NCBI RefSeq assembly: GCF_000018105.1
Contig: NC_009925.1
Span: 3,060,001 to 3,092,000 of the forward strand
Origin: Acaryochloris marina MBIC11017
Lineage (GTDB): Bacteria > Cyanobacteriota > Cyanobacteriia > Thermosynechococcales > Thermosynechococcaceae
Direction: 5' to 3'
Length of the DNA: 32,000 nt
The notes beneath the pieces are model-generated. The model made no database searches, was not told the DNA's origin, and worked only from the letters and a program-made list of their open reading frames with translations. Below, one piece after another: positions 7,807-31,967 of this stretch (position 1 is its first letter; the number at the start of each line of letters is the position of its first letter). Position numbers and translations under genes: made by a program.

Positions 7807-7839
7807 TGTCTACTTTCTCGTTAGGGTTGGGGGAAAGCG

Positions 7840-11346: not shown

Positions 11347-11447
11347 CAGCAATCACAAGGGAATTAACAGACTGCTACAATCACTGCGATGTCTGCATTG
11401 AGTGATAAAGGGGTATGGCAACGATTCAATGCCCATCCCACCGACCC

Positions 11448-11975
11448 TTATGTTGACTTACCAAAACCCCCATCCCATCTGGTACAGAACGGGTAAGCAT
11501 AAGCTGGTGGGCCAAATTCTGTAGAGAACTCAAAATTAATCACCTGCCAGCGAGAATCAGCATCAATGACAGGGCTAAATTCTAAAGGCAGCCCATAGAG
11601 CCGGGGTTTCGCATAGTAAATTTGTCGCCACCAATCAGATTGGAATTCTAAATGGGGCTGGACTAGTGCTTCATATCGGCGAGCAAGGGTCAGTTTAACC
11701 GCCCGAAAACCCTGGTAATGCAGGTGATCAAGCACTTGGAAAACTTCTATCTTTAGCCCTTCTGGGTTGCGGTGCTGCTGATACCAATTGCCCTGCCAGG
11801 GATACCAACATCGCTCCGTATCGAGGTGAACGAGACTGCCCGTTACCGGATCGGCTTCAAAGACCCCATGACTCGGGCAAAGATACGCCTCGGTTAGCAT
11901 CAGGGCTGGACTCTGTCGGCGGCAAATCGGACAGCTAATATGGATACCAAAAATAGGCCAATCTAACAGGGTCAT
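11448..11975 (-). CDS. conserved hypothetical protein with N-terminal CxxC...CxxH zinc-ribbon-like motif
   Basis: The sequence MTLLDWPIFGIHISCPICRRQ...YLCPSHG supplies the motif. The ATG at 11975 lies 2 nt after the WD40 stop (11978), suggesting co-translation; an alternative start is 11993. Confidence 0.55.
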   Translation of the reverse strand: MTLLDWPIFGIHISCPICRRQSPALMLTEAYLCPSHGVFEADPVTGSLVHLDTERCWYPWQGNWYQQHRNPEGLKIEVFQVLDHLHYQGFRAVKLTLARRYEALVQPHLEFQSDWWRQIYYAKPRLYGLPLEFSPVIDADSRWQVINFEFSTEFGPPAYAYPFCTRWDGGFGKST

Positions 11976-11977
11976 GC

Positions 11978-16796: not shown

Positions 16797-18647
16797 CTAA
16801 ATGTGTTGTTTGGCATCAATGGCAGACTGCATTTTTTCGCACAGTTCGGGGAGCTTCAATAGCTCCTGCTCTTCTGAATGCCGAGTTCGAATATTGAGGG
16901 TCTGGGCTTCGACTTCTTTTTGACCCACCACGGCGACCACCGGAATTTTTTCCAGGGCGGACTGGCGAATTTGTTTTCCTAAACGCTCTCCCGTCTGATC
17001 GATTTCAGCCCGAAAACCCTTCTGCTGAAGCTGCTCTAAGACTTCAAGGGCATAGGGGCGTTGGGCATCACTGACAACGAGTAGCCGAATTTGTACGGGG
17101 GCTAGCCATAGGGGGAAATCCCCTGCATAATTCTCGATTAAAATGCCGAAGAATCGTTCTAAAGACCCGAAAATGGCCCGATGAATCATAATGGGACGTT
17201 GCCGCGTTCCATCTGCAGCGACATATTCCATCTTGAAGCGCTCGGGTAAGTTAAAGTCCACCTGAATTGTGGAGCATTGCCACAGCCGTCCGATCGCATC
17301 CCGTATCTTGAGATCGATCTTCGGTCCATAAAAGGCACCCCCGCCTTCATCCGTCAGGTACTCCCAGCCTTTACGGTCTAGGGCCGTGCGCAAGTCCTGG
17401 GTGGCCAAGTCCCAAATCTCATCGCTACCCACTGATTTATCAGGCCGGGTTGAGAGATTAACCTCATAATCCCGAAAGCCAAAGTCCGACAACACCGTTT
17501 CGGTTAGATCCAGAACCGCCAAAATCTCATCGGCCACCTGATCCGGTAGACAGAAAATATGGGCATCGTCTTGGGTAAAGCCCCGGACCCGCATCAGTCC
17601 ATGTAAGGTCCCGGAGCGTTCGTACCGATAGACCGTCCCTAACTCCGCCCACCGCAGGGGAAACTCTCGATAGGAGTGGAGGTCGTGCTGATAGGTGAGC
17701 ACATGAAAGGGACAGTTCATGGGTTTGATCTGATAGGCCTGGGTCTCCACTTCCATTTGATCAAACATGCTGTCCCGGTAGAAGTCGAAATGACCCGAGG
17801 TCTTCCACAGATCCAGGTTGGCCATATGAGGGGTATAGAGCAACTCATATCCCCCCTGTGTATGCGCTTGTCGCCAGTAGGTTTCAATGACCTGGCGAAT
17901 TCGAGCCCCTCGGGGATGCCAAAAGACCAGTCCTCCGCCAGCGTTGTCTTCAATACTAAAAAGCTTCAGATTTTTGCCCAACAGGCGATGGTCTCGACGC
18001 TGGGCTTCTTCTTTTTGGTGCAGGTAAGCTTTTAACTGCTTCGGTGTTTCCCAGGCGGTTCCATAAATCCGCTGTAGCTGCGCTTGGGTTTCATCGCCAC
18101 GCCAGTAGGCTCCGGCGACGCTTTCGAGCATAAAGGCCTTAGAGTGCAGTTCCCCCGTACTGTTGAGATGGGGACCCGAGCACAGATCCCACCAAAATTC
18201 ATTGGGGGCCACTGGTAGAGGCTCAATGAGTGAGGCTTCCGCCTCGGGATGTTGGGTCCGTCCCGTGTCAGGACTGCCAATAAAATAGCGGGTAATGGTT
18301 TCCCCCGCCGGAATCTGGGCCAATATTTCTAATTTGTAGGGTTCTTGCAACTGTTCCAGTTCGGCCTGCATCTGATCGCGATCCACTTGTTCGCGGATGA
18401 TGGGCAAATTGGCTTTGATAATCCGCCGCATCTGAGTTGATATGGCATCTAAATCTTCTGGCGTAAATGCCTGGTCCCGGTCAAAGTCATAGTAGAAACC
18501 GGTCTCTGTCGTTGGACCAATCGTCACCTTCGTCTCCGGAAACAGATTCTGCACCGCCATGGCCATCACATGGGCGCAGGTGTGGCGGAGTCGCTGCAAT
18601 TGTTCAGTGGAATTGGGCGCTGACAGGGTCGAAGAAGCAGTAGACAT
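16797..18647 (-). CDS. thrS: threonyl-tRNA synthetase (no TGS domain), operator-controlled copy
   Basis: Editing-domain HTCAHVMA, class II catalytic core (KPMNCPFHV, RVRGFTQDDAHIF, GGGAFYGPKID) and a C-terminal anticodon-binding domain. It starts directly at the N2 domain. Confidence 0.9.
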   Translation of the reverse strand: MSTASSTLSAPNSTEQLQRLRHTCAHVMAMAVQNLFPETKVTIGPTTETGFYYDFDRDQAFTPEDLDAISTQMRRIIKANLPIIREQVDRDQMQAELEQLQEPYKLEILAQIPAGETITRYFIGSPDTGRTQHPEAEASLIEPLPVAPNEFWWDLCSGPHLNSTGELHSKAFMLESVAGAYWRGDETQAQLQRIYGTAWETPKQLKAYLHQKEEAQRRDHRLLGKNLKLFSIEDNAGGGLVFWHPRGARIRQVIETYWRQAHTQGGYELLYTPHMANLDLWKTSGHFDFYRDSMFDQMEVETQAYQIKPMNCPFHVLTYQHDLHSYREFPLRWAELGTVYRYERSGTLHGLMRVRGFTQDDAHIFCLPDQVADEILAVLDLTETVLSDFGFRDYEVNLSTRPDKSVGSDEIWDLATQDLRTALDRKGWEYLTDEGGGAFYGPKIDLKIRDAIGRLWQCSTIQVDFNLPERFKMEYVAADGTRQRPIMIHRAIFGSLERFFGILIENYAGDFPLWLAPVQIRLLVVSDAQRPYALEVLEQLQQKGFRAEIDQTGERLGKQIRQSALEKIPVVAVVGQKEVEAQTLNIRTRHSEEQELLKLPELCEKMQSAIDAKQHI

Positions 18648-18685
18648 AGAGGCTTGAAGGGAAGGGTGAAGGGTTGCTTAAGCAT

Positions 18686-18702
18686 ATGATAATGATTATC
18701 AT
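18686..18702. promoter_or_regulatory. shared Zur/Fur-type operator in the thrS / folE divergent promoter region
   Basis: ATGATAATGATTATCAT is a perfect 8-1-8 palindrome. A TATAAT lies at 18711-18716 on the plus strand and another at 18706-18701 on the minus strand. Confidence 0.7.
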
Positions 18703-18789
18703 TATATCTGTATAATGTCAGTTTGCTTTTGGATTAAAGCCGACTGGATCTCGAAGTTCCTCTTATCCCTTTCCGCATTAGGAGTTTGT

Positions 18790-19425
18790 ATGACCGTGCC
18801 TTCCATCCCTTCATTTGTCCCTGAGACGCTTACCACTGAAGCTCAGCCCATCGTCTCGGAGGCCGAAATGGAGGCCGCCGTCCGCACGTTGTTGCTGGGT
18901 ATGGGTGAAGATCCCGATCGCGAAGGCCTGCGAGATACCCCTAAGCGAGTGGTTAAATCTTTAAAATTTCTGTCTTCGGGTTATCAGCAATCCCTGGATG
19001 AATTGCTAAATGGGGCCGTCTTCTCCGAAGATCTAGATGAAATGGTACTGGTGCGCGATATTGACCTCTTTAGTTCCTGCGAACATCACATCTTGCCCAT
19101 CATCGGCAAAGCCCATGTGGCCTATATCCCCAACGGCAAAGTGATTGGCCTGTCGAAAATCGCCCGCATCTGTGAAATGTATGCTCGGCGACTTCAGGTC
19201 CAAGAACGGTTAACCGCCCAAATTGCTGATGCCTTACAGGGTCTCCTGAAGCCCCAAGGGGTAGCTGTCGTGGTAGAAGCAAGCCATATGTGTATGGTGA
19301 TGCGTGGGGTACAAAAACCCGGATCGTGGACCTCCACCAGCGCGATGCGAGGCGTCTTTTCCAGTGATGCCCGCACCCGCCAAGAGTTCTTTAACTTGGT
19401 TGCCCACGCACCCGCCATTCGCTAG
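18790..19425 (+). CDS. folE: GTP cyclohydrolase I (FolE type IA)
   Basis: Contains [18 protein letters not shown] and [14 protein letters not shown] lies 7 nt upstream of the ATG at 18790; the track start at 18715 is probably too far upstream. Confidence 0.9.
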
Positions 19426-19449
19426 TTCCGGCTTCAGCCGATCAGCACT

Positions 19450-20424
19450 ATGCTTCCCGTCCCTGGACTCTTTGAATACCGTCTGCCCGTCACCCTGATC
19501 ACGGGCTTTTTGGGGAGTGGTAAAACCACTCTGCTGAACCATCTAATGCGCCATCTGAGGGATCGACGCGCGGCGGTGTTTGTCAATGAATTTGGAGCCA
19601 TTGACATTGATAGCCAAATTCTGGTGACCGTAGATGAAGATCTGGTGGCCTTGTCTAACGGCTGTATCTGCTGCCAGATCAGAGATGATTTTCTGATGGC
19701 CTTCCGACGGGTTTTGGCCTATAACCAAATGCAAACGTCTGCCGGAAAACGGGGGCTAGATGCCATTTTCTTGGAAACATCTGGGGTGGCCGATCCCTAT
19801 CCACTGATGCTCACCTTTAGAGCGACTGAACTCTGGAGCTTAACCCGGTTGGATGCAATCCTGACCGTTGTGGATGCTGAGACCTTTACAGCTGAGTATT
19901 TCCAAAGTCAGGCTGCTCTTGCCCAAATTCAACATGGCGACATCATCCTGCTGAATAAAACTGATCTAGTGGATGACGAACAGCTTAGGTCTGTAGAAAC
20001 AGAAATTCAGCGCTTCAAGCCCCAGGCCAGGATATTACCGATGACCTATGGTCAAGTTCCTCTTTCCAGCGTTTTGGATGTGGATCTCTATTCCGAGGAC
20101 ATGTCAACAGACTCCCCCTCAGGAGTCCAGCATCTGCAGAATGACGGGTTTGTCGCTGTCCCCTTTGAAAGCGATCGCCCCTTTAGCTTAAGAAAATTTC
20201 AGAAATTTTTGGACTATCAGCTCCCCTCAGAAGTCTTTCGAGCAAAAGGGGTTCTCTGGTTTGACGAAAGTCCCCACAGACATCTCTTTCAACTCAGTGG
20301 TAAGCGGAGCCAACTTCAGGATGAGGCTTGGCAAGATCCTCCCAGAAACCAACTGGTGTGCATTGGCCGTAACCTAGATGAAGAAGAATTACAACATCAG
20401 CTCCATCAGTGTCTTGCCCCATGA
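19450..20424 (+). CDS. COG0523 (CobW/ZigA/Zng1-type) metallochaperone GTPase
   Basis: Walker A GFLGSGKTTLLN, the metal motif GCICCQI, NKTDL, and a CobW_C-like C-terminal domain (RAKGVLWF). Confidence 0.85.
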   Translation: MLPVPGLFEYRLPVTLITGFLGSGKTTLLNHLMRHLRDRRAAVFVNEFGAIDIDSQILVTVDEDLVALSNGCICCQIRDDFLMAFRRVLAYNQMQTSAGKRGLDAIFLETSGVADPYPLMLTFRATELWSLTRLDAILTVVDAETFTAEYFQSQAALAQIQHGDIILLNKTDLVDDEQLRSVETEIQRFKPQARILPMTYGQVPLSSVLDVDLYSEDMSTDSPSGVQHLQNDGFVAVPFESDRPFSLRKFQKFLDYQLPSEVFRAKGVLWFDESPHRHLFQLSGKRSQLQDEAWQDPPRNQLVCIGRNLDEEELQHQLHQCLAP

Positions 20425-21179
20425 ATAGTCCTTCTGTTATAGCCGTCGCTGGCCCCTGTGGCAGTGGTAAAACCACCTGGATTAACCAGTTTTTAAAAAT
20501 TGAAACGGCTCCCTTCTTTTATTTCTATCCAGACCTAGACCGGAGCTCCGTTGACTTAATACGGATTGGCTATTCTTTCCCTAGGACCCAGGTGATGTCT
20601 GATCTGCAGGCTCCTCAGATGTTCTCCTCCCTGCCCGACGGAGCAATCATCTATCTAGAGCTAGATTTTCCTCAGCCCATAGAACCTCTCCTGCCGAAGG
20701 CGCTTCCTTGTCATCACGTGGCTTTACTGCCGCCTTATCTTCAAGATTCTGCCTGGCACGAATGGGCAGATGAGATTGTTCCAGGAAACAAAATTACGAT
20801 TCCAAATGTAACCCAGCCCTCTGAGCGATGGCACGCCCCCTTGCAGGGGCAAGTCTTTGATCCTGCAAGCTTAGAGGTCGTGCTGACGGAACTGATCGAG
20901 GGAGCCTATGGTGATGTTGATCGTTTGAAAGGTATCTTTGAGATGCCCGATGGCCAAGCCCTTTATATTGATTTTGTGGCCGGGCTAGAGGGGGTTGAAT
21001 ATACCGAACTCAATATTCCTCGTTGGCTAGAGGGACGACCCGACCGCTGGAGTGGGATTGAAGTCATAGGCAACAATCTACAGCCTAAAATCATCTCCGA
21101 AACCCTCTTGGATGGAGGCCTAACTGATCAAATCATTGCCTATTATCAACAGCAATACCAAGCCTTAAGCCCTGCATAA
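20421..21179 (+). CDS. degenerate COG0523-like P-loop protein lacking the CxCC motif
   Basis: Has Walker A GPCGSGKTTWINQF and a CobW_C-like RLKGIFEMPDG but no CxCC and no NKxD. The ATG at 20421 overlaps the upstream TGA (ATGA, 20421-20424). Confidence 0.6.
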   Translation: MNSPSVIAVAGPCGSGKTTWINQFLKIETAPFFYFYPDLDRSSVDLIRIGYSFPRTQVMSDLQAPQMFSSLPDGAIIYLELDFPQPIEPLLPKALPCHHVALLPPYLQDSAWHEWADEIVPGNKITIPNVTQPSERWHAPLQGQVFDPASLEVVLTELIEGAYGDVDRLKGIFEMPDGQALYIDFVAGLEGVEYTELNIPRWLEGRPDRWSGIEVIGNNLQPKIISETLLDGGLTDQIIAYYQQQYQALSPA

Positions 21180-21207
21180 CCTTAAGCCCTTTATAAAATC
21201 GTTCAGT

Positions 21208-22020
21208 ATGAAACTTGCGGTGATTTCCTGTATTCATGGCAATTATGAGGCCCTGAATACCGTGCTCTCTGATATTGATCAGCATCAAGCCGACCAAATT
21301 TACTGTCTGGGTGATTTAGTCGGTTATGGTCCCCACCCCAATGCTGTAGTGGAGATGATTCGTTCCCTCGATATTCCCACCTGTCAAGGCTGCTGGGACG
21401 AAGATGTGGTCGAAGGTCTCAATGCCTGTGAATGTAGCTATCCTTCCTTGATCGCAGAGAAGCGGGGAAGGCAGGCCCATGAATGGACGAACCAAGTCAT
21501 CCATCCAGAGGTGCGGGACTATCTAGCCCAACTCCCCATGACCCTGCAGGCTGAGAATATGGTCTTTGTCCACGGGAGTCCCAACAGTCAGCATGAATAT
21601 TTACTGCCTAGCATGGATGGATTTGCTGCCCTAGAGCGGGTAGTCTCCACCGACGCAGATGTCTTGTTCTGTGGCCATACCCATGTTCCCTATGTGCGGG
21701 AGCTAGAGGATGGCAAGCTCTCCGTGCGCGTTCACCAACCGGGACAAGACGACCAGCAGCACCAGTTCACGGCGTCCTTGAAGCGAATTATCAATGCCGG
21801 ATCCGTGGGAGAACCCCGCCATGGACGTCCCAATGCGACTTACGTTCTCTATGACACCGATACGGCCCAGGTCACCCTTCGGGAGGTGCCTTATGACTAC
21901 GAGAAGACCTGTGCAGCCATTGTTGACAAGGGCTTGCCGCCCATTTTTGCCTGGCGCTTGGCGCGAGGGATGGAGTTTGCAGAGCGAGCCGATGATCCTA
22001 GCCATGTATGTCAGCGGTAG
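21208..22020 (+). CDS. metallophosphoesterase-family protein with non-canonical metal-ligand motifs
   Basis: The calcineurin-like scaffold is kept in GDLVGYG, VHGSP and GHTH. Motif I reads SCIHGN (usually SDIHGN) and motif III reads GCWDE (usually GNHD/E). It carries a Cys cluster CQGC...CEC. Confidence 0.7.
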   Translation: MKLAVISCIHGNYEALNTVLSDIDQHQADQIYCLGDLVGYGPHPNAVVEMIRSLDIPTCQGCWDEDVVEGLNACECSYPSLIAEKRGRQAHEWTNQVIHPEVRDYLAQLPMTLQAENMVFVHGSPNSQHEYLLPSMDGFAALERVVSTDADVLFCGHTHVPYVRELEDGKLSVRVHQPGQDDQQHQFTASLKRIINAGSVGEPRHGRPNATYVLYDTDTAQVTLREVPYDYEKTCAAIVDKGLPPIFAWRLARGMEFAERADDPSHVCQR

Positions 22021-22045
22021 CTGGCCCCAATTCAGGAGGTAGAAA

Positions 22046-22798
22046 ATGGAACAGTGGGCAATTTTAAGCGGGATTGAGGGCAATCTCGGCGCCTATGAGG
22101 CGGTACTGGCCGATATTCGCCGACAGCGCGTGTCGGACCTGTATGTCTTAGGCGACTTTGTGGGCTTCCAGGGAGACAACGAGGCCGTGATCCAGCGACT
22201 CCAGTCTCCGGGTGTTGGCGAATTAGAACCTCAAATTTGTATCGGCTGGTGGGAGGAACAGTGCTTTAATTTGTACGGGTTGGGCGGCCTGCCCGATGCC
22301 CCAGAACTGGTAGAACAAGAGGGAGCCGATGCGGTTCAGCGTCTCTGGGAATCGGTCTCCCGGCAGTCTGTGCAGTGGATGAGATCACTTCACTTTGGGT
22401 TTCACGAATTAGACTGCCTGCTGATCCACGGCAGTACCGTGGGCTATGCGGATGAACTCACACCGGATACCCCGGCGATGCAATTGTGCGATCGCTTGAT
22501 TCGAGCCGATGCCAACCATCTCTTCTGTGGCCGTTCAGGCCGCACCTTTGAATGCTGGGTCACTCCCACTCAGCTAAACTCTACCGTCACCACCCTAGAT
22601 GGAACTCAACCTACCCAAGACCAAAGCAAATCGGCCCGGCGCGTCATCGGCGTCGGTTCAGTCGGATGCAATCCTGGGGAGGCTACCTACACCTTGTATA
22701 GCCCAGGCAGTAACCAGCTCTCTTTTAGAACTGTCAACTATGGGCAGGCCCAATACGGAAGAACAAAGAGAGAAAAAGTAAAAGGTTTCGGCTCCTGA
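22046..22798 (+). CDS. metallophosphoesterase-like paralog with degenerate active site
   Basis: Same layout as the upstream gene, but motif I is SGIEGN, motif III is GWWEE and motif V is GRSGRT. GDFVGF and IHGS are retained. Confidence 0.6.
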   Translation: MEQWAILSGIEGNLGAYEAVLADIRRQRVSDLYVLGDFVGFQGDNEAVIQRLQSPGVGELEPQICIGWWEEQCFNLYGLGGLPDAPELVEQEGADAVQRLWESVSRQSVQWMRSLHFGFHELDCLLIHGSTVGYADELTPDTPAMQLCDRLIRADANHLFCGRSGRTFECWVTPTQLNSTVTTLDGTQPTQDQSKSARRVIGVGSVGCNPGEATYTLYSPGSNQLSFRTVNYGQAQYGRTKREKVKGFGS

Positions 22799-22860: not shown

Positions 22861-25800
22861 TTACGGAGAATCGCTATCTTCAGATTCTTCCATGATTTCG
22901 AAATCACTAATGTATTCCCGGACAACACGCTCGAAAAATAGTGGTGCCGGTAAAGTCGTAGATTCTGAATAGTGCCCGACTACATATCTTAAAGACTCAA
23001 CAAGACAGGCTATTTGGTCAGGATCGTCTTCTTCCTGACATAAGGTCACGACAATCTCAATTGGATTGGGCGTTGGCCATTGCTTTATGAAAGGCATTTT
23101 TTCAGACAATTCTCGTACTTCGAGACCAGCGGCATTTTTTATAGTTTTTACCTTCTTTGTCAAACCCGAATTTTCTGAGGATCCATCATCATTCTGAATC
23201 TCTACAGCGGTGTGTGCTTGAGTAGTACGATAGCAGCTTTGACCTCTCCACTGTTGCTGAACAGCTCTACTGCCGATAGACAAGTATGTTTTGCATCCTG
23301 TTGAGTTAGATGTGGATAGCCTGAATAGCTTGCCGAGCGTACTAGAGGCAGATGGGATTTTGAGATCTGGGTCTGCTGTAGCTCTTTGTTTCAATTCATC
23401 TAAGGATCTCCCATCGTCCATGAACGTTTCCATAAGGTGGCGTACTTTCTCTTCAATGATTCCCGGCGTAAATCCTTGTCGTATACGAATCAATCTCGCA
23501 CCTGCCCATTCTTTATGCATCCAATTGGAAACTCCTTCAAGGCGAATATCGTTCGCATCTATACGAGAATCAGCCAGCCAGGGCCATAAATACGCACAGT
23601 TGGTAGAATCTACCATTATTAGTGGATGCATGTTTTTCTCAACAGAGTCAGAAACAACGCATCTGACAAACTGCATGAAGTTTTTCTTGCGCATTTCACG
23701 ATTATTTCCTATCTTGACGGGAGAAATCGCTGAAACTTTCGTGAGTGCATCAGAAAATCTTTCCCACTCAGTTATCTCAAGCTTATTCTCGTCTGCATAA
23801 GCGCAGCGCATATCGCATAGCCCCGTTTCAACCTGAATACGAATCGCGATAGGTAAAAAGGTACTTTCAATACGCCCTCTCACACGTCCCTTTTGTTTCC
23901 GAACGATAGTGATAGCGATAATTTCTTTAGGTTTAGATTCTGACGGTATCTTCAAGCACTCGTCAACTTTGGCTTTGATGCCCTCGACACGACCTGAATG
24001 CGCAGATAATAAATCTTTTAGCGCCTGCTGCGCTCGACGGGAATAGTCTACTAAATCAACTTTGCTCTCTTCCTTCGTCCTCTCCATCTGAGTGATAAAT
24101 TGTACACAAGCGCCACCGACGCTAGCTAATGCTCTTCGTGTAGATGGTTTATTAATTGGATCATCTCGTTTATCTATGCCATTGTCTGTGAAAAACTTTG
24201 GAGCCAGCACAAGGCAGAATGTGTGCTCCTCTCTTGCAGCAATTTGATTAGCGATTGACTCCCATGCTTTAAGACGTTGTTTAGAACGCTCTTTCCCTTT
24301 TTTATTAGGTTCTGGAAGATCGTGTTTTGATCCATGTGTGTCTGGTGGTAAAGTGTTTGTCAAAATCTCAACGGATTTACCCCAGAGTAATTGAGCCGTC
24401 GCTTCCAGGAAGCTTAGCTCTTTTTGAAAGCCGTCTTGATAAAAGATGAAAAGAGATAGCTTTTTCCCTGGATATATTCTCTCTAGGGCACTACTGTTGC
24501 GGTCTCTGATCACCTTAAGTGCTTCAAATTCTTCCCTCTTTAATTCTTTAGTCTGAAGTCGCTTTCTCCCAGCGATAATAGCTTCTAACGAAAGACAAAA
24601 TTTTTCTTTCATCTGTTTCTCAAGCTGATTATCGCTAAGTTTATTTACGTAGTCTGGTGTAAAATTAACTGACTCAGACTCTTGTGCTTCGAGCATAGCG
24701 CTTAATAGTGTTGGTAGCTTAATTTCTTTTTCTTTCTGTCGTCCGCTGCTTTTATTTTTGACAACCTCATAATCGGTAAAAGGTACTAAGCCAATAGAAC
24801 GCACTAATTTCTCTATATTTACGTAGGCTTCTAACTTATCAGTCTCTGGTACGCCTACATCAATGCCATGTTTTTCCAGTCCGTTTCGATGCGTGAGGGC
24901 AAGCTGTGAGCCACCATAATCGGCCTTCTTCAGGACAATGTCTTGTCCACTAAATGCTTGCATACCCAAATCTAGCTGATTGCGAATAGCACCAAAGTCT
25001 TTAGCTGTTTTCCAACTCCACTCTTTGTTTTCTTTGCAGCAGACGACTTTGAAGCTGAATGTACGGCCTGGCAAATCTGGAGAAAATGCATAACCAAAAA
25101 TATCGTTGCGATAGCGATCAGGTGCCTCAAGTGAATCCAGCCATCGACGCTTCGAGACATCTATCTCAATTACTGGCTGGTGGACTGAAGGAAAGGTGAC
25201 GAGCTGTAGCTTCACCACCAAACTAAATCGGCCTTTATTCGTTATTGAGATCGGGGTAGTTACTAGCTCAGCAGTACTGCTCATAAATTTCCCGTAGCTA
25301 GAGATGACCCGCCTCATGGGACCGCAGCCTTTAAATATTTCTTGGCCTGCAATTAAACGAGCAATGTAATCTACAACTAACGTGTAGGCACGGCCGTGAT
25401 CTGCTTTAGTCGTTCCAGTTTTCTGCTGCCATGGCCACGGCAGAAGAGTCATTTCAAAGGGACGACTGTGTATGAGATTGCCTTTCTCAGCCAGCTCTCG
25501 TATTTGTTCTAGTAATTTCTCAGGGATATCTTTCTTTTCGCAGAACGGTCTCAAGTCATTAGTAATCCAGTTATTCAAGACAAGTCGCAATCTCTTTGAA
25601 AGCTCTTCATCGTTATCGCTATCTATCAGACGTGCGAAGTCATAATTTTGCGGATTGCTACTGCGGATTTCTCTGATTAAAGTGCTTTTTAAGCACAAGT
25701 GATTCTCAATTCGATCAATTTCTTTTACTAGGACGTTCAGTAGTCCTCTTAACGATTGATAGGGAAGTTCTTTGTACTTTTCTTCTTCTCCATAGGCTGC

Positions 25801-25956
25801 CTTGTGAATGTCACTAAAGCTCTTTAGAGCTTGCCTTGTCCAGACAAGTGTTACGCCACTGGCGTGAATTGGCGGTAAGTCATCTGGAACTGTAAATGCC
25901 AAAGCAACATCACGCAGCTTTTTGATTTGACCAGGCTGAATGTAGTATTTTGTCAT
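22861..25956 (-). CDS. large Argonaute-like protein, best fit pPIWI-RE (MID plus RNase H-fold PIWI module)
   Basis: 1031 aa with no NTPase motif. KPSTRRALASVGGACVQFI resembles the MID/PIWI K..R..G..Q.I block. The C-terminal ~250 aa has LIMVD(783)STN, LIRIRQG, NPIE(967)IVV and LRYVVGHY...LPAPLFFERV. It is the last gene of the nuclease-helicase-PIWI trio. Confidence 0.55.
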   Translation of the reverse strand: MTKYYIQPGQIKKLRDVALAFTVPDDLPPIHASGVTLVWTRQALKSFSDIHKAAYGEEEKYKELPYQSLRGLLNVLVKEIDRIENHLCLKSTLIREIRSSNPQNYDFARLIDSDNDEELSKRLRLVLNNWITNDLRPFCEKKDIPEKLLEQIRELAEKGNLIHSRPFEMTLLPWPWQQKTGTTKADHGRAYTLVVDYIARLIAGQEIFKGCGPMRRVISSYGKFMSSTAELVTTPISITNKGRFSLVVKLQLVTFPSVHQPVIEIDVSKRRWLDSLEAPDRYRNDIFGYAFSPDLPGRTFSFKVVCCKENKEWSWKTAKDFGAIRNQLDLGMQAFSGQDIVLKKADYGGSQLALTHRNGLEKHGIDVGVPETDKLEAYVNIEKLVRSIGLVPFTDYEVVKNKSSGRQKEKEIKLPTLLSAMLEAQESESVNFTPDYVNKLSDNQLEKQMKEKFCLSLEAIIAGRKRLQTKELKREEFEALKVIRDRNSSALERIYPGKKLSLFIFYQDGFQKELSFLEATAQLLWGKSVEILTNTLPPDTHGSKHDLPEPNKKGKERSKQRLKAWESIANQIAAREEHTFCLVLAPKFFTDNGIDKRDDPINKPSTRRALASVGGACVQFITQMERTKEESKVDLVDYSRRAQQALKDLLSAHSGRVEGIKAKVDECLKIPSESKPKEIIAITIVRKQKGRVRGRIESTFLPIAIRIQVETGLCDMRCAYADENKLEITEWERFSDALTKVSAISPVKIGNNREMRKKNFMQFVRCVVSDSVEKNMHPLIMVDSTNCAYLWPWLADSRIDANDIRLEGVSNWMHKEWAGARLIRIRQGFTPGIIEEKVRHLMETFMDDGRSLDELKQRATADPDLKIPSASSTLGKLFRLSTSNSTGCKTYLSIGSRAVQQQWRGQSCYRTTQAHTAVEIQNDDGSSENSGLTKKVKTIKNAAGLEVRELSEKMPFIKQWPTPNPIEIVVTLCQEEDDPDQIACLVESLRYVVGHYSESTTLPAPLFFERVVREYISDFEIMEESEDSDSP

Positions 25957-25966
25957 GGATAGCTAA

Positions 25967-28900
25967 TCACTGTTCGTAGAAATGTGAGTATGAGTCGAAA
26001 TCGTCTGTTTCGGGTGTCTCATCTGAAAGGTGCTGTGGCTCTTTGGGATACTTAACGCCAGCGATTTCTCTCAAGGGTTCTAAAAAAGCACCGTAGAGTT
26101 CTTGGTAAATTGAACGGTCAGTTGGATCGGGATGATTGATACAGTCTTCTAAAATGCTGCGCATTTGAACTAACATGCTGTCTCTGCCTGAATCCGGTTT
26201 GCCTAAAGCAGAGTTCATAGCCCAAGCAGCATCTACAAAGTAAACTGCGACGGGGCAACCGTTTCGCATACCTCGGCCGATGGTTTGTAGAATGGCAACC
26301 ATTTGGTTCGCAGTGAAAGCCTTAAACAGCTCGGGACTCAGGCGACTGGCCATGATAGGCTCCCGCAGAAGTTGATTAGCCGTTCTCCACAGGTCTTTTC
26401 TGGCCTGTTGCCAAGAATTGGCGATCGCATCCACATCTTCTTCTCCAAACGTCCTGCTATCAAAATCCTGCGTTGCCTGCCCTGCCAAGCTATACAGCAA
26501 CTGCATATCGTCGCTAGTAGGATGCGGCCGAGTCAAAAAGTAAATAGAGCCAATCGCCGCATCTAGCATTCGCGGCCCTTTTGTGAAAACGATATTAACG
26601 CCGCGACCGATTGCTAGCATCGGGAAAACAATAATGTCGCAACTATCATCATCACCTAAAGACTCGCACTGTCCCGTTGTTACATAGTCGTCAGATTTTT
26701 CTCCTTCTTTAAGGAATCGAACAACCGCCTTAGTGCGACGTCCGGTCTCTGGATAGTATCTATTTAGAAATGTTTTAACCATTCTTGCTTGTTCATAGCT
26801 ATTCACAATGAGCGCTGCCTTCCGCTTTTGGCCACCGCGAACATCAAAATTATTGATAGATTTATAAATCTCAGACTGCCGGGCATCTTCGTTTCTCGTT
26901 CCACCCTTCACCAGTTCTTCAATCATTTTTTTGAGATTGCGTTCTCTAGATTCTCCGGCTCCGCTGTAACGTAGGGGTTGGCTTCTCCACTCTTTATCTG
27001 CCTGCCACTTAAACTCATACCGACTGGGTTCAGTTTTGTACAAAGGTTCAAGAGGTTTGAGAAGATAGTCCGGTTTGATGTTTACGTTGTAGGCAGGACT
27101 TGCCTCCAGGAATGAAGTTGCCGATGTTAATAGAGTCGCTGGGCCGCGATGATTATTGTCTGGAGATAGCAACTGATGAAATCGGTACATTAGCATTCGG
27201 GGGGCACCTACAAATGCTACGTACGATATTTCTACATTTCTAGCGTTTGTACGGGTTGTTTGTGCCTTAGAGAATGTGTATTTAACGCCAGAGAGCGAGC
27301 CAAGTAGACTGCTTGGGATCATCCGCCGTAGCGATCGCGAGGCTGTGGATTGAATAATTGGATCCCGAATCAAACCTTCTGCAACTAGAGCCCGAGTACC
27401 TGGAATGATACGCTGGTAGCCAAGAATAACGAACGTTACTACGATAAGTAGTTTGATAGCATCTGATTCCTTTCCGGTCGATGAATGATCAGGAAAGCAA
27501 ATTGATAGATAGAACTGGGATATTTCCTGAGAGATTTCATCTCTTCGCTGCGCTAAGCCTTCTGCAAGATAGCGCTGAAAATGTTGAATGAGCGTGTCTC
27601 GTTTCTCTTCTAGCTCTGTTTCTGAAATCCTTAGAGTAGCCGCATTAAAAGAAAGGTTTTTCCACTCATCTCTATTGCTACTAGTACGGTTGTAAAAAGC
27701 GTTGTAGGCTGCGGTCTCCCAGAAATCAGTCAGCGCCCGACTGCGGTTAACCTTAAGTCTTCTACCCTCATCTGTCGGGGGCTTCTTCTCTTCAGGATTC
27801 AATCGGTTCTGCCCGTTCTCGTTTACTATTTCGCTAACGATTTTAAGAACAGTCAGTAGCTGGTTCTCGTATTTTTCTCCAATGTAAGACTCATTGAGAT
27901 TTTGAACCGTTGTAACGAGCGCACTATTATGGTTTCCAAAGTCGGATAAGTGCCAGCTAAAAGTGGCAATATCGGGATCTGCTAGGCGATGATTGTCTTT
28001 GCCTGCAAAACGACTGTGAATTTGCTCTTGAATGGTTCTGTGAATAGATTTCTCTGAGCCAGAGATACTCAGTGTTGCCGCGCCGTAGGCATCTAGATTT
28101 GACTGCACCATATCCGCTTCATCGAACACGACTACATCAAAAGTCCGTGCAATCAGCTCAAAGTAGCGAATTCGCACTTGTACTGCATGAGACGAGACGG
28201 GTGTATCCATAGAGCGAATATGCCCGACCCATATGTTGGATGTAGTTAGCTCACGTACGGATTTGTTCCGTCCACACATGGTCCAAAGTGGACACAAGCA
28301 GGGTTTCAACTCTCCTTTGCTGTCACTTTGCAGAACAGCATTACAAGGCGCGTAGCCAAACCCCCACATTGATGTGTCCGCATTGGAAAAGGCAGGCAAT
28401 ACACAGTTGAGACTGAAAATATCTGCAACGCCTAGCGTATGGGAAAATCCTCTGTTCGGATATGCTGCCGCGATCGCCTCTGCTAAATTATCGGCATGGC
28501 GTCTGCGCGTTTCATCGCTTTGCCCTACCAACATACCGACTTTAACGGCATGAAACTGTAAAACGTCCATGTACTGCCTGGACACTTCAATAGAGGGAAA
28601 GACGAACATCGCTTTGTAGTTTTCTTGGGCTAGCCACATAGCAATGAGAATAAGGATTGTTGTTTTCCCTGATCCTGGTAATCCAATCAGATGCTTTATT
28701 CCCGCTAAAGTCAAAGTATCTGTTGGTTGTAGTCCATCTGCTGTGGGAACGGTCAGCATAAATCTCTCTAGCCGACTAGCCCATCGACCTGGACGCCGTT
28801 CAGGATAGTTTGCCTCCCGGTCGTCCATCTTGACAGCCAGTACTTTTAAGTCTTCGAGAGGAATTCGAATATTGTCTTGTAGCTGTCGATTCAGTGGATG

Positions 28901-29404
28901 GTAATGTCTTTGTGCGATTTTTGCTTCGATCGGCGGAATTGGAATTCTCGTCGATGTGGAGTCTGTGCCTAGCGCAACACTCATTGCCTGTCTTACCTCT
29001 GCAACCTTGGTCGTATTAGGTTGGTATGAAAGCGGCGCTCGCAAGATTTCCTTAGCTTGCGTAATCAAAGAATCTTCTAATGGATTTGTCCTTTCGAATG
29101 TCAGGTTTTGGGCATCGATTTGGTAGGAGCCTTGCGTTCCTTTCAGGTAGTGATGATTGTTGTAGATTGCGATCGCGTGATTAACAGAGCGCTGCGTGAC
29201 ATAGGCTAAAGACATCTGCCTCATATTGAAAATAGCTTGGCGAGCCTCGATCAGTGCAGAAGCATTCAGTATGCTGTGCATCCCGGACATTACCGCTGGT
29301 GCATGTTCTAAAGACTCACTGCCCACAAAAGACTCCATCAAAACGCAGAGCCAACAGATTTGGTTCGGACCGGTCCAAAAATTAGGTTTAACTCGCATAA
29401 GCAA
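25967..29404 (-). CDS. large SF2 (DinG/DEAD-like) helicase with long N-terminal and inter-lobe insertions
   Basis: Walker A GLPGSGKTT (nt 28658-28684), Walker B VVVFDEADMV, a second lobe with FPMLAIGRGVN, and a motif VI-like QTIGRGMRNG. There is a 17-nt overlap with the upstream gene and a 10-nt gap to the downstream gene. Confidence 0.75.
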   Translation of the reverse strand: MLMRVKPNFWTGPNQICWLCVLMESFVGSESLEHAPAVMSGMHSILNASALIEARQAIFNMRQMSLAYVTQRSVNHAIAIYNNHHYLKGTQGSYQIDAQNLTFERTNPLEDSLITQAKEILRAPLSYQPNTTKVAEVRQAMSVALGTDSTSTRIPIPPIEAKIAQRHYHPLNRQLQDNIRIPLEDLKVLAVKMDDREANYPERRPGRWASRLERFMLTVPTADGLQPTDTLTLAGIKHLIGLPGSGKTTILILIAMWLAQENYKAMFVFPSIEVSRQYMDVLQFHAVKVGMLVGQSDETRRRHADNLAEAIAAAYPNRGFSHTLGVADIFSLNCVLPAFSNADTSMWGFGYAPCNAVLQSDSKGELKPCLCPLWTMCGRNKSVRELTTSNIWVGHIRSMDTPVSSHAVQVRIRYFELIARTFDVVVFDEADMVQSNLDAYGAATLSISGSEKSIHRTIQEQIHSRFAGKDNHRLADPDIATFSWHLSDFGNHNSALVTTVQNLNESYIGEKYENQLLTVLKIVSEIVNENGQNRLNPEEKKPPTDEGRRLKVNRSRALTDFWETAAYNAFYNRTSSNRDEWKNLSFNAATLRISETELEEKRDTLIQHFQRYLAEGLAQRRDEISQEISQFYLSICFPDHSSTGKESDAIKLLIVVTFVILGYQRIIPGTRALVAEGLIRDPIIQSTASRSLRRMIPSSLLGSLSGVKYTFSKAQTTRTNARNVEISYVAFVGAPRMLMYRFHQLLSPDNNHRGPATLLTSATSFLEASPAYNVNIKPDYLLKPLEPLYKTEPSRYEFKWQADKEWRSQPLRYSGAGESRERNLKKMIEELVKGGTRNEDARQSEIYKSINNFDVRGGQKRKAALIVNSYEQARMVKTFLNRYYPETGRRTKAVVRFLKEGEKSDDYVTTGQCESLGDDDSCDIIVFPMLAIGRGVNIVFTKGPRMLDAAIGSIYFLTRPHPTSDDMQLLYSLAGQATQDFDSRTFGEEDVDAIANSWQQARKDLWRTANQLLREPIMASRLSPELFKAFTANQMVAILQTIGRGMRNGCPVAVYFVDAAWAMNSALGKPDSGRDSMLVQMRSILEDCINHPDPTDRSIYQELYGAFLEPLREIAGVKYPKEPQHLSDETPETDDFDSYSHFYEQ

Positions 29405-30893
29405 CCTCCTGTAAAAGCTTGATCACAGCAGATACAGGCAAAACTTCTACCGTTGCCGGATCGCCCTTTTTTGACAATGTAGATTGCAGAGTAGATAGAT
29501 AGCTCGGGTTATCTGCAATGAGCTGATCGCTAATAGCAATGATGCGACGCTGATAGTAAACCAAGCCACCAATACTTTGGTTGAGTCGCAGTGCTAGTGA
29601 AACTGGGCTGATGTATGATTTTGCATCAATTCCAATCTCGTAGTCATTGAGTGATACATCACACAAATCTGACTCGGGGTACAGCTCAGCTCTGAGACCT
29701 TGCTGTTTCGCAGTGTCGAAAATGGCAAGTTCGTCAATACCTGGGCCCGTCCAATAGGTCAGAATCTGAGGCTTCGCTACGAGTAGGCGATGCTGCTCCG
29801 GGTCCAACGCCTCACTTACTTTCGGCGTATAGCGACTATTACATTGCCGAATCGGACATCGTCCTTCCTTAAAGCGCTGGTCATTTGGATGTGGGTGCAT
29901 CAGGGTTCCGCAGTAAGCACATCGATTTGCTTTGCCTTTGATTAACCAACTCTCAGGGATTTGATCGAAGAACGTGTCGACAATCCTTTCTTGCAGTGGC
30001 AACAGTTGACGATCTTCGAGATAGTCCCAAAGTGCCTTTTCTCCGATGAGTGAGTGCCGAACTGCAAGTTCGCGGAGTGCTGTATACCCAAGGTGTTGTC
30101 TGCGGGTGCCCAGTTGTTCTGTATATGTTTTGAGTCGCTGATACAGGCGGTACTCAACAACATTATCTTCCCCCCAGCCTCCATTAGCTTGTGCGACTTC
30201 AGTGCAATCTGACGTGGGCACATATAGGTCTGGATCAATAAGAACGACATCCGAAAATCGAAAATCGTTCTGACTAAAAACCTTTAACCGCCAATCTTCG
30301 GAACGGAAACTGTGTCGGGCGCGATCTAGCACAGTATGGACACAGGCAGCTTTATCTGGTGTGCCCTCCTCTATGTATAAGCGGCCTAGCTTACACATCG
30401 CTCGATAGAGTTCGGACGGCATGCTGTCGTTTTGTCGGACAATTTCTTGATTAAGAACGCGCGTGTACTGCTTCAGAATGCCTTGAGCCAGCAAAACGAC
30501 AGCATCTTCTGCAGTGTCTATGATGTTGTGTAGACTAGCTGCAAAAGAATGACCTTGTGCGATCGCAGCCGACCAGTTGGGGTCTCTATTTTCCGACTCA
30601 GCTAAAATCTGCCTCTCCATATCAGCATCCGAAAAATTAGGCAGCACTTCTCCAATGGATGCTAATGTCCAGCCCCTTTTCAAGAGCAGCGCTGTTGCCA
30701 ATCCTTCTAAAATCTGGCGAAACCCAAACTTTTTACCTTTAGGTTGGGAGAGTAGTTTCTTCGATCGCCAAAGCCGAATTGTCCGCAGTGCAGGCGGTTC
30801 TATCAAGATATTCAATAAACCAGTCTGATGCTGAATTTCTTCAGTCAGATCTTTGGCAGACCCACTCCAACGGCGCACGCGGTCGAATTGCAT
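29388..30893 (-). CDS. HTH / zinc-ribbon / PD-(D/E)xK nuclease protein (first gene of the trio)
   Basis: MerR-like pattern RTIRLWRSKKLL...FGFRQILEGLATALLLKRGWTLASI. Zinc ribbon CAYCGTLMHPHPNDQRFKEGRCPIRQC. C-terminal D412...E419..D423-A-K425 (nt 29619-29660), typical of the restriction-endonuclease fold. Confidence 0.6.
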   Translation of the reverse strand: MQFDRVRRWSGSAKDLTEEIQHQTGLLNILIEPPALRTIRLWRSKKLLSQPKGKKFGFRQILEGLATALLLKRGWTLASIGEVLPNFSDADMERQILAESENRDPNWSAAIAQGHSFAASLHNIIDTAEDAVVLLAQGILKQYTRVLNQEIVRQNDSMPSELYRAMCKLGRLYIEEGTPDKAACVHTVLDRARHSFRSEDWRLKVFSQNDFRFSDVVLIDPDLYVPTSDCTEVAQANGGWGEDNVVEYRLYQRLKTYTEQLGTRRQHLGYTALRELAVRHSLIGEKALWDYLEDRQLLPLQERIVDTFFDQIPESWLIKGKANRCAYCGTLMHPHPNDQRFKEGRCPIRQCNSRYTPKVSEALDPEQHRLLVAKPQILTYWTGPGIDELAIFDTAKQQGLRAELYPESDLCDVSLNDYEIGIDAKSYISPVSLALRLNQSIGGLVYYQRRIIAISDQLIADNPSYLSTLQSTLSKKGDPATVEVLPVSAVIKLLQEVAYAS

Positions 30894-30998
30894 TTATCCA
30901 AGCGATAGATTACATTAATCAATGATTACACCATTTAGTGTAAAAATTGAATCTGTTTCACAAATGTATTAAGTTGACCCTCAATAAGGCACAAAGCT

Positions 30999-31334
30999 AT
31001 GGACACGTCTCCACAGGAAATTCGCCTATATCTGCGACCAGACGGTAGCTGTCCCTTTGCGCAGTGGCTAGAAGGTTTGCGAGATCGGCGTGCAAGAGCC
31101 AAAATCAGGCAGAGCTTAGATAGGATTGAGCTGGGCAATATGGGTGACTTCAAGCCTGTCGGCAAAGGCGTCTTGGAGGCTAGAATTAAGTACGGCCCAG
31201 GATATAGAGTTTATTTTGCTCGTGCAGGTCGGCAAGTTGTCTTGCTGTTGTGTGGCGGAGACAAAAAGACGCAGAATAAGGATATCCTCAGAGCACAGCA
31301 GTATTGGATGGACTTTCAAAAGTACAAAAAATAG
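30999..31334 (+). CDS. RelE/HigB-superfamily toxin (addiction module killer protein type)
   Basis: 111 aa with CPFAQWLEGLRD..ARAKI...LGNMGDFKPVGKGVLEARIKYGPGYRVYFARAGRQVVLLLCGGDKKTQNKDI, a near-textbook pattern for this family. Confidence 0.85.
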   Translation: MDTSPQEIRLYLRPDGSCPFAQWLEGLRDRRARAKIRQSLDRIELGNMGDFKPVGKGVLEARIKYGPGYRVYFARAGRQVVLLLCGGDKKTQNKDILRAQQYWMDFQKYKK

Positions 31335-31412
31335 AAAACATCTAAAAGCTACCACTCGTACCTAGTCGAATCGCTAAAGGATAAAGAAGAAGCAGCCGCT
31401 TATCTAGATGCC

Positions 31413-31637
31413 GTGTTTGAAGATGGAAGTCCAGAAGAAGTGGCGCTAGCACTCAAAAATGTTGCAGAAGCTCGTAGACAATCAGTCGATACCTCACAGA
31501 CAAGCAACGCTGACTGGGAAAAGTGCTACCACTTACTTGAGCAATCAAAAATGCCAGCTTTGCCTATGCTTTTGATGCTATTGAGTGAGTTGGGATTAAA
31601 ACTGACTGTCACTGTAAAGCAGGGGCAACCAACGTAA
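31413..31637 (+). CDS. cognate antitoxin (addiction module antidote, HTH type), start codon problematic
   Basis: The C-terminal LSELGLKLTV and the LALKNVAEAR blocks fit the family. Conserved N-terminal residues (SYHSYLVESLKDKEEAAAYLDA) are encoded at 31335-31412, upstream of the first usable start (GTG 31413). Confidence 0.6.
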   Translation: MFEDGSPEEVALALKNVAEARRQSVDTSQTSNADWEKCYHLLEQSKMPALPMLLMLLSELGLKLTVTVKQGQPT

Positions 31638-31967
31638 TTCATACTTATCTACTCAGATAACATCTACGAGTTGCAAGCATTTGATGTCAGAGTCAAAATC
31701 ATCGAGCCAGGTGGAATCAAAACGAACTTTATCCATAGCGATACGACATGGGCAAACTCTGTTGACAGTCCTTATCATGAACTCACGCAACAAGTGAAAT
31801 CCTTCAGAAAGCGGCTAAATGAATCATTGTCAGGGCCACAGAAAGTCGCTGAAGCGATTTATCAGGCAGCTAATGACCAGTCTGGTAAGCTACGCTATTC
31901 TCCACATGGACAGGCGTTTCTATTACTACACGCATGCTGCCTGATAGGCTATGGCGATCGCTCGTAG
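31638..31967 (+). pseudogene. 3' fragment of a short-chain dehydrogenase/reductase gene
   Basis: It encodes only the C-terminal third (ELQAFDVRVKIIEPGGIKTNF...). The Rossmann TGxxxGxG and the catalytic YxxxK portion are absent. The frame opens right after the antitoxin stop. Confidence 0.6.

Follow-up and report, generated by a model that had tools for sequence, protein, structure and literature searches.

What does a bacterial gene trio do that joins a nuclease, a giant helicase and an Argonaute-like protein? This question is raised by a 32,000-nucleotide stretch of the Acaryochloris marina MBIC11017 genome (contig NC_009925.1, positions 3,060,001 to 3,092,000; the whole stretch is called the window below), in which three minus-strand open reading frames (ORFs) follow one another at 29388-30893 (gene 1, 501 amino acids), 25967-29404 (gene 2, 1145 amino acids when read from a TTG codon) and 22861-25956 (gene 3, 1031 amino acids). 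A preliminary description made from the DNA letters had proposed that they form a pPIWI-RE operon, a candidate system for nucleic acid-guided defence. We find that the locus is an already known and already annotated member of the pPIWI-RE three-gene family and not a new kind of system. Our best explanation of the whole, to which we give a probability of roughly 55%, is an autoregulated operon in which a PIWI-RE sensor, a putative iron-sulfur (Fe-S) helicase of the DinG type and a PD-(D/E)xK nuclease would together remove plasmids or phage DNA.

Among the major branches of prokaryotic Argonaute-like systems, PIWI-RE is the one for which neither reconstitution of the full set of three proteins nor protection of cells by it has ever been achieved. 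The A. marina locus offers an intact, clean and well-conserved example of it in a cyanobacterium that can be cultured. To the existing annotation we add a conserved putative operator, a clade-wide pattern at Gln708 of gene 3, the assignment of roles to individual residues, and confirmation of the Argonaute and DinG folds.

Family membership and gene layout

All three proteins were matched by profiles of the pPIWI-RE family. Gene 3 matched the Pfam models pPIWI_RE_X (E = 4.7e-75), MID_pPIWI_RE (1.5e-25) and RNaseH_pPIWI_RE (4e-65), gene 2 matched pPIWI_RE_Z (E = 1e-42), and gene 1 matched pPIWI_RE_REase (E = 4.9e-13); the three gene 3 matches and the pPIWI_RE_REase match lie above their cut-offs. 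A fifth family domain, pPIWI_RE_Y, matched residues 197-280 of gene 1 with E = 7.6e-4 and 20.3 bits, under its cut-off of 26.7; this region lies inside the full-length PprRE profile match obtained with PADLOC. The PADLOC models matched as PprPIWI (3e-120), PprDinG (1161 bits, E = 0) and PprRE (3.2e-144 over residues 124-496 of gene 1). A profile signal of this size, with E-values from 1e-13 down to 0, is far beyond chance. The class named prokaryotic Argonaute (pAgo) type III in PADLOC is the PIWI-RE class (PMC11333966). Against NCBIfam, none of the three had a meaningful match.

Structure prediction for genes 3 and 2 led to the same families. The AlphaFold2 model of gene 3 has a mean predicted local distance difference test score (pLDDT) of 79 and a predicted template modelling score of 0.76. 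The top 24 matches of this model in a Foldseek search of the PDB were Argonaute or PIWI proteins, led by TtAgo (5gq9_B, E = 6.8e-10) and followed by PfAgo, Siwi, hAgo2 and MpAgo; Med13 and DdmE came next. The top eight matches of the gene 2 model were DinG or CasDinG chains, followed by XPD; the best were CasDinG (8rfj_K, 2.2e-6), Escherichia coli DinG (6fwr_A, 5.3e-6) and Staphylococcus aureus DinG. Searches of the PDB with single sequences and with a family profile returned no Argonaute, DinG or restriction endonuclease (REase) chains, and neither the three proteins nor other family members turned up with a solved structure; the Argonaute and DinG structures were therefore reached by fold comparison alone. 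Gene 3 likewise had no Pfam Piwi or PAZ match, and profile searches did not reach the classical Argonautes. Given that Pfam, PADLOC and both folds agree, the earlier assignment of all three genes to pPIWI-RE stands.

The fold comparison also places gene 3 relative to the classical long pAgos TtAgo, PfAgo and MpAgo, with which it has the N/PAZ-like, MID and PIWI arrangement in common (probability 1.00, target-normalised TM score of about 0.5), although sequence identity is 8-12%. The MID pocket that binds the 5' end is conserved (K603, Q619). PIWI-RE proteins differ from these Argonautes in an extra helix after the first beta-meander, in the R/E signature that names the family, and in their obligate partnership with a helicase and a nuclease.

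Existing records are consistent with these results. By exact-sequence match, gene 1 is AM1_3063 (ABW28059.1, WP_041659854.1; "restriction endonuclease-related protein"), gene 2 is AM1_3062 (ABW28058.1, WP_012163489.1; "pPIWI_RE_Z domain-containing protein") and gene 3 is AM1_3061 (ABW28057.1, WP_012163488.1; "pPIWI_RE module domain-containing protein"), and RefSeq and UniProt already label them as pPIWI-RE island proteins. The family was defined by Burroughs, Iyer and Aravind in 2013, who found the REase fold with an Acaryochloris query, gi: 158336201 (PMC3702460). This query is probably the same gene as AM1_3063. The locus matches the defined three-gene system in all domain architectures, in the invariant R and E, in gene order, in its close or overlapping gene termini and in lacking a methyltransferase. 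Its putative fusion of a MerR-type helix-turn-helix (HTH) to the REase would be a variant listed in the 2013 paper (PMC3702460). Nothing categorical differs; the clade of the locus has Gln, Lys or Asn at the first catalytic Asp and a promoter palindrome, both discussed below.

The three ORFs and the 10-nt gap between genes 2 and 3 (25957-25966) are present as described earlier, and the motifs named for each protein were found in place (CAYC325, CPIRQC346 and DAK423 in gene 1; GLPGSGKT241, DEAD428 and QTIGRG1040 in gene 2, in the 1145-residue numbering; MVDS781, IRIR823, PIEIVV965, LPAPLFFERV1002 and VQFI618 in gene 3). The 17-nt overlap of genes 1 and 2 (29388-29404) requires revision. An AGGAGG sequence touches the TTG codon directly, and the same AGGAGG lies 6 nt before an ATG at 29398. 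Because of this spacing, and because RefSeq and GenBank both give the helicase as 1143 amino acids, we place gene 2 at 25967-29398 and the overlap at 11 nt (29388-29398). When the operon was scanned for sigma-70 and terminator consensus sequences, neither kind of internal signal exceeded that in shuffled controls; promoter-like sites were fewer than in shuffled sequence, and the scan is uninformative beyond indicating no strong internal signals. A single promoter upstream of gene 1 would transcribe all three tightly coupled genes.

We compared the locus with 79 related genome loci (L001-L079), which supplied 69 homologues of gene 1 and 73 of gene 2 for conservation analysis. The order REase, DinG, PIWI-RE, which the preliminary description had recognised here, recurs in about 70 of the 79, in essentially every locus with enough upstream DNA, and the gene junctions are conserved across about 70 cyanobacterial loci. 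No methyltransferase domain was found among the called genes up to 10 kb on either side or among the scanned ORFs of the window.

Residue roles in the three proteins

The closest experimental reference for gene 3 is PsPIWI-RE of Pseudomonas stutzeri DSM 4166 (WP_014597637.1; Huang 2022, PMC10991935), a member of the same family whose gene lies downstream of dinG with a 4-nt overlap. Gene 2 can be aligned with the C-terminal part of PsDinG (27% identity, E = 2e-9), motif VI included. PsPIWI-RE has about 783 amino acids against the 1031 of AM1_3061, and the published experiments used it in isolation from its partner helicase and nuclease. The protein binds DNA and RNA guides with 5'-phosphate or 5'-hydroxyl ends and cuts in DNA/RNA hybrid configurations only, namely single-stranded DNA with RNA guides and RNA with DNA guides; cleavage was weak and required a 25:5:1 ratio of protein to guide to target (PMC10991935). 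These results date the statement in the preliminary description that no guide, target or phenotype had been shown for the family. D525 and D610 are essential for cleavage, whereas R639 and E718 are dispensable: D525A abolishes cleavage, and the E718 alanine mutant cuts like wild type (PMC10991935).

We mapped these residues onto AM1_3061 by their spacing in PsPIWI-RE (85, 29 and 79 residues between successive positions and 65 to the C-terminus). Across 183 aligned family members only one mapping fits: D525 to column 708, D610 to D796, R639 to R826 and E718 to E967. The distance from 796 to 826 is 29 in most sequences, and that from 783 to the Arg is never below 34. Peptides derived from the qPCR (quantitative PCR) primers of the paper were sought among the family representatives to locate PsPIWI-RE itself, with no match. 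In the AlphaFold2 model, strand 701-708 opens the meander and has Q708 at its C-terminal end, and D783 ends strand 779-783; columns 708 and 783 in this model coincide with the places where the first two catalytic acids of RNase H classically lie. The meander continues with strands 713-722 and 725-728, then W731 (47/66) and the extra helix at 734-743. T683, which closes strand 678-685, was a further candidate for the first catalytic residue; we rejected it because it is never acidic in the family and because spacing and topology favour column 708.

Residues were counted in 66 diverse family members. R824 and R826, on strand 821-827 of the model, are invariant (66/66), and the E967 column, on strand 966-972, holds Glu in 61 and Asp in four. 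These are the eponymous structural R and E of PIWI-RE and are not catalytic. The RNase H-like set of the preliminary description is thus retained in part, with D783 as a conserved acidic residue (52/66) and the IRIR motif and E967 reassigned to the structural signature. Since the PsPIWI-RE equivalents of R and E are dispensable for cleavage, the E967A substitution suggested earlier as a catalytic mutant would be uninformative. D796 is found in 65 and H995 in 51 of the 66 members, and AM1_3061 retains both. Column 708 is more variable, with Asp in 36 members and N, E, H, S, Q or K in the others. AM1_3061 has Gln here, at the position of the essential D525, and its PIWI domain is for that reason probably, but not certainly, impaired in cleavage.

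This pattern bears directly on the view that the PIWI-RE protein is itself the guide-directed nuclease, with the helicase and REase serving mainly to make or load guides from invader DNA or to process cleaved targets. PsPIWI-RE does cut with guides, D783, D796 and H995 are all present in AM1_3061, and E710, on the same strand face as 708, might stand in for the missing Asp. Column 710 is acidic in 66% of members without an acidic residue at 708 and in 28% of those with one; this correlation is confounded by phylogeny, and E710 could be a relocated carboxylate that compensates for Q708. However, D525A abolishes cleavage in PsPIWI-RE, whose activity is weak even in the wild-type protein, and K, N or Q fills column 708 in the majority of the cyanobacterial clade, whereas the catalytic residues of the REase are invariant. 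We therefore consider it unlikely that gene 3 encodes the main nuclease of the system.

In gene 1, D387, D409, D412 and the D423-A-K425 motif are invariant among the 69 homologues, and the E419 column is not conserved (A or N). The PD-(D/E)xK signature proposed earlier consequently holds for D412 and D423-A-K425 and fails for E419. Four cysteines that form a zinc ribbon (C325, C328, C346 and C351) are likewise invariant (69/69). Taken together with the probable impairment of PIWI cleavage, these findings point to the nuclease, and not the Argonaute-like protein, as the likely effector. The N-terminal region of about 100 residues is conserved across all cyanobacterial loci and weakly resembles a MerR HTH. 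MerR_1 matched AM1_3063 below threshold (E = 0.032, 14.8 bits) and one homologue just below its cut-off of 21.6 bits (E = 2.9e-4, 21.3 bits); four further homologues gave no match. Fusions of MerR HTH domains to these REases were listed by Burroughs and colleagues (PMC3702460).

In gene 2, helicase motifs I, II and VI are invariant among about 70 related loci. C332, C352, C369 and C375 (1143-residue numbering) are conserved in 73/73 homologues, and a fifth cysteine is not. The four invariant cysteines sit between Walker A (K245) and the DEAD motif (426-429), where DinG and XPD carry their Fe-S domain, and from this position and conservation we regard the cysteine-rich region as a putative 4Fe-4S site. 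The AlphaFold2 model (pLDDT 65) places long helices at 452-673, a large helical insertion.

A conserved putative operator, a proposed mechanism and alternatives

A palindrome, TTACAC-TAAATG-GTGTAA, lies 33-50 nt upstream of the gene 1 ATG, in the 105 bp that separate gene 1 from a divergent toxin gene. Nowhere else in the 32-kb window is the pattern TTACAY-N4-8-RTGTAA matched. Of 67 unique related loci, 47 carry this pattern in the 200 nt that precede gene 1, which amounts to roughly 800-fold enrichment (47 in 13.4 kb of upstream sequence compared with five in the remaining 1.16 Mb of these loci). Nearly all upstream regions (64 of 66) contain the half-site 7-mer GATGTAA/TTACATC, which usually comes shortly after a TTGACA box, and an extra RTGTAA recurs in related loci about 10-12 nt after the palindrome. 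Because the upstream neighbour genes differ between loci, the palindrome belongs to the promoter of the triad itself. This conserved promoter element is undescribed in the searchable literature and is new here. Expression is probably controlled by this defined 18-bp operator, and in the simplest reading the MerR-like HTH of gene 1 probably binds it, which would make the operon autoregulatory; binding is inferred from sequence.

In the DdmDE system of Vibrio cholerae (PDB 9ezy, 8u0j), a recognised replicon is destroyed by a superfamily 2 (SF2) helicase and a PD-(D/E)xK nuclease that act with a catalytically inactive Argonaute-like, guide-binding sensor. The logic is the one we propose for the present locus, and DdmE appears as a distant match among the fold hits of gene 3 (E = 5e-4). 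DdmD, however, joins helicase and nuclease in one polypeptide where the locus has two genes, and the helicase of the locus is instead of the DinG/XPD type with a putative Fe-S region. The PADLOC Ddm models gave no match to the locus proteins, which matched Ppr models only; the sensor thus belongs to a different Argonaute branch from DdmE. A second parallel is type IV-A CRISPR-Cas, whose CasDinG (PDB 8rfj, 7xf0, 8e2w) is the best structural match of gene 2 and in which a guide-bearing complex works with a DinG helicase presumed to operate from an R-loop, as proposed here. The guide module of type IV-A is a Cascade-like CRISPR RNA complex and not an Argonaute, and that system has no dedicated nuclease; gene 2 has a Z domain in addition and approaches double the size of CasDinG.

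Our favoured mechanism runs as follows. Binding of the MerR-like HTH to the palindrome would hold the operon under its own control. The Argonaute-like protein would hold a short guide by its 5' end in the MID pocket (K603, Q619) and recognise invader nucleic acid that is complementary to the guide, probably in the form of a DNA-RNA hybrid or an R-loop; R-loop or hybrid-directed restriction was also the model put forward for the family in 2013 (PMC3702460). Lacking the first catalytic Asp, the protein would act mainly as a sequence sensor and not as a cutter. Target binding would recruit or license the putative Fe-S helicase, which would load on the displaced strand and then unwind or translocate, much as CasDinG does on type IV-A R-loops or DdmD through DdmE. 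The zinc-ribbon nuclease, with its invariant D412, D423 and K425, would then cut the DNA, and plasmids or phage DNA would be eliminated. We extend this scheme only tentatively to the cyanobacterial clade as a whole, and would not be surprised to see the extension fail: there the PIWI-RE protein would be a cleavage-dead, guide-loaded sensor that licenses helicase and nuclease, in effect a DdmDE split into three, switched by the MerR-like HTH through TTACAY-N6-RTGTAA.

A sensor of this kind could also trigger the death or arrest of its host. In such an abortive infection, target recognition would unleash the nuclease and helicase on all DNA, including that of the host, as in the long-B pAgo-nuclease systems. 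A probably inactive Argonaute-like sensor beside a separate effector nuclease fits this outcome, a dedicated operator is consistent with a toxic product held in check, and the characterised long-B, short and SiAgo-like pAgo systems do work in this way (PMC11333966). A processive helicase, on the other hand, is more typical of directed replicon degradation, as in DdmDE and type I or III restriction. In Pseudomonas sp. H2, where mutations that compensated for the cost of a plasmid fell in the helicase of such a system, the helicase caused plasmid cost and cell killing was not reported (PMC11637435). On balance we think host killing a distinctly doubtful role for the triad.

The distribution of the family speaks to whether its role is immune at all. 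Profile searches of 1.84 billion proteins recovered 418 representatives (E <= 1e-3), scattered patchily, and relatives of gene 3 are carried on 15 plasmids, including those of Tolypothrix, Calothrix, Azospirillum, Cupriavidus and Bradyrhizobium. In A. marina the triad sits on a small insertion of about 8.8 kb with lower G+C content (0.451 over 22861-31637 compared with 0.498 over 1-22860; gene 3, 0.427), in agreement with the AT-richer unit noted earlier. An unrelated cyanobacterial metagenome-assembled genome (MAG; L001) shows 75.6% nucleotide similarity to the window across 22880-31630 only, that is, across the triad and an adjacent toxin-antitoxin pair. Patchiness, carriage on plasmids, lower G+C, a block in common with an unrelated MAG and the plasmid-cost mutations together favour defence-like behaviour. 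In addition, identity to Nostoc and Microcoleus homologues is about 62-65% for the nuclease and helicase and about 45% for the PIWI-RE protein, which thus evolves fastest in the triad; this fits arms-race pressure on the sensor component.

A role primarily in chromosome maintenance, through R-loop resolution or through replication finishing and decatenation under topoisomerase stress, is improbable: deletion of piwi-re in P. stutzeri lowers survival of ciprofloxacin about 15-fold and causes filamentation (PMC10991935), classical pAgos give the same phenotype (PMC11555693) and DinG helicases act on R-loops (PMC3702460), but a rare, patchy, plasmid-borne family on a lower-GC insertion, with a fast-evolving sensor, has the marks of mobile defence genes rather than housekeeping genes.

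Several observations weigh against the sensor-helicase-nuclease explanation that we favour. In the searchable literature to mid-2026 there is no experiment on this locus or on any complete triad and no report of phage or plasmid protection for the family, whose sole in vivo phenotype is ciprofloxacin tolerance and not defence (PMC10991935). The MerR match lies under the Pfam threshold, and confidence in the helicase model is low, especially in the cysteine-rich region. The mapping of D525 to column 708 rests on residue spacing and not on the PsPIWI-RE sequence itself, and with D783, D796 and H995 kept and E710 enriched the PIWI domain may still cleave. If the favoured explanation is true, it would tie PIWI-RE mechanistically to the DdmDE and CasDinG systems. 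The clade-wide extension, were it to hold, would for the first time supply both a mechanism and a regulatory circuit for the last prokaryotic Argonaute branch still uncharacterised.

The insertion, its neighbours and related loci

Positions of the genes, domains, residues and regulatory elements discussed here are collected in Table 1.

Table 1. Features of the pPIWI-RE locus and its immediate neighbours, in window coordinates.
Feature	Position	Strand	Basis
Gene 1, AM1_3063, PprRE: HTH, Y domain, Zn ribbon, PD-(D/E)xK nuclease; 501 aa (amino acids)	29388-30893	-	PADLOC, Pfam, exact-sequence match
Gene 2, AM1_3062: DinG-type SF2 helicase with N-terminal Z domain; 1143 aa	25967-29398	-	PADLOC, Pfam, Foldseek, ATG with Shine-Dalgarno sequence
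Gene 3, AM1_3061: PIWI-RE Argonaute-like; 1031 aa; X 20-414, MID 506-659, RNase H/PIWI 679-1017	22861-25956	-	Pfam, PADLOC, AlphaFold2 model
MerR-like HTH region, gene 1 aa 37-85	30639-30785	-	Sub-threshold MerR_1; conserved N-terminus
pPIWI_RE_Y helical domain, gene 1 aa 197-280	30054-30305	-	Pfam below cut-off; PprRE coverage
Four-Cys zinc ribbon, gene 1 C325/C328/C346/C351	29841-29921	-	Invariant, 69/69
PD-(D/E)xK nuclease domain, gene 1 aa 385-497 (D412, D423, K425)	29403-29741	-	Pfam pPIWI_RE_REase; conservation
Putative 4Fe-4S Cys region, gene 2 (C334/C354/C371/C377 in 1145-aa numbering)	28274-28405	-	Conservation, 73/73
Q708, first catalytic Asp position, gene 3	23833-23835	-	D in 36/66; spacing maps to D525
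D783 and D796 (= PsPIWI-RE D610), gene 3	23569-23610	-	52/66 and 65/66
R824-I-R826, family R, gene 3	23479-23487	-	66/66; R826 = PsPIWI-RE R639 by spacing
E967, family E, gene 3	23056-23058	-	61/66 E, 4/66 D; = PsPIWI-RE E718
H995, gene 3	22972-22974	-	51/66
Palindromic operator TTACAC-N6-GTGTAA	30926-30943		Conservation upstream of gene 1
Third operator half-site (TTACAT on plus, ATGTAA on gene strand), downstream of palindrome	30910-30915		Recurrence in loci
HigB/Gp49-like toxin, divergent from gene 1	30999-31334	+	Pfam Gp49, 1.6e-07
Antitoxin ORF (HI1420-downstream type), without its ATG here	31335-31637	+	101-aa product in L080/L081; weak PF21716

A second A. marina assembly holds the same locus at 99.2% identity. 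Neither target-site duplications nor terminal repeats were found at the edges of the insertion, and the repeat search gave only short pairs at chance level. The toxin-antitoxin pair does adjoin the triad, as the preliminary description had noted, but its label of a typical defence island is weakly apt. The rest of the window encodes housekeeping functions (FeoB-like GTPase, oxidoreductase, GGDEF, WD40 and CcmM-like proteins, threonyl-tRNA synthetase (ThrRS), GTP cyclohydrolase I, CobW and metallophosphoesterases), so that the locus is a small insertion standing on its own rather than a defence island of several systems. We considered the toxin-antitoxin pair as a component of the system and rejected it; the pair accompanies the triad in one of the 79 loci, that of the nearest relative (L001), and is a lineage-specific neighbour.

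Compared with the near-identical loci L080 and L081, the window has an extra A at 31324 and another at 31333, at the junction of toxin and antitoxin. These change the tail of the toxin (YKK* in the window, SKNENI* in L080 and L081) and turn the antitoxin ATG into ATAG, so that the next start is a GTG at 31413. The extra bases are due either to a sequencing error at homopolymers of the record or to decay affecting the toxin-antitoxin module. At the border of the insertion, a 98-residue ORF on the plus strand (31671-31967) resembles only the C-terminal part of a short-chain dehydrogenase, is uncalled in L080 and is probably a gene remnant. The insertion sits in a cluster (window 16797-22798 and, beyond the window, L080 1-5563) with a ThrRS paralogue, GTP cyclohydrolase I, two CobW/COG0523 genes, two metallophosphoesterase-like genes, 5-aminolevulinate dehydratase (ALAD), ZnuABC and a cation-efflux gene, which may be a zinc-starvation cluster resembling a Zur regulon. 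The coding region of gene 1 contains a perfect 14-nt inverted repeat (30421-30434 and 30492-30505; ATGCTGTCGTTTTG and CAAAACGACAGCAT) with 57 nt between its arms.

Plasmids that carry PIWI-RE homologues include a 46.8-kb Tolypothrix/Microchaete plasmid, Calothrix NIES-22 plasmid4 and megaplasmids of Azospirillum, Cupriavidus and Bradyrhizobium, and five are predicted to be conjugative; in several lineages, plasmids thus carry a system that is itself suspected of acting against plasmids. Signs of interruption or degradation are seen in some related loci. In one Hormoscilla MAG (L046), about 2.4 kb is inserted within the helicase gene, whose match spans 2071-7893; in another (L067), about 1 kb is inserted within the PIWI-RE gene, whose match spans 8001-12025; and a third locus (L076) has fragmentary triad matches only.

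Outside the window, the family also includes giant PIWI-RE representatives of about 2,900-3,500 amino acids (P0108, P0111, P0114, P0119, P0122 and dozens more). The X, MID and RNaseH module makes up their first 950 residues or so and is followed by about 2,200 residues, in which Pfam finds only an AAA_22/AAA_16 (STAND-like) ATPase near residues 2430-2910; PADLOC finds nothing beyond PIWI. This giant fusion is absent from the 2013 list of architectures and may represent an undescribed type of system.

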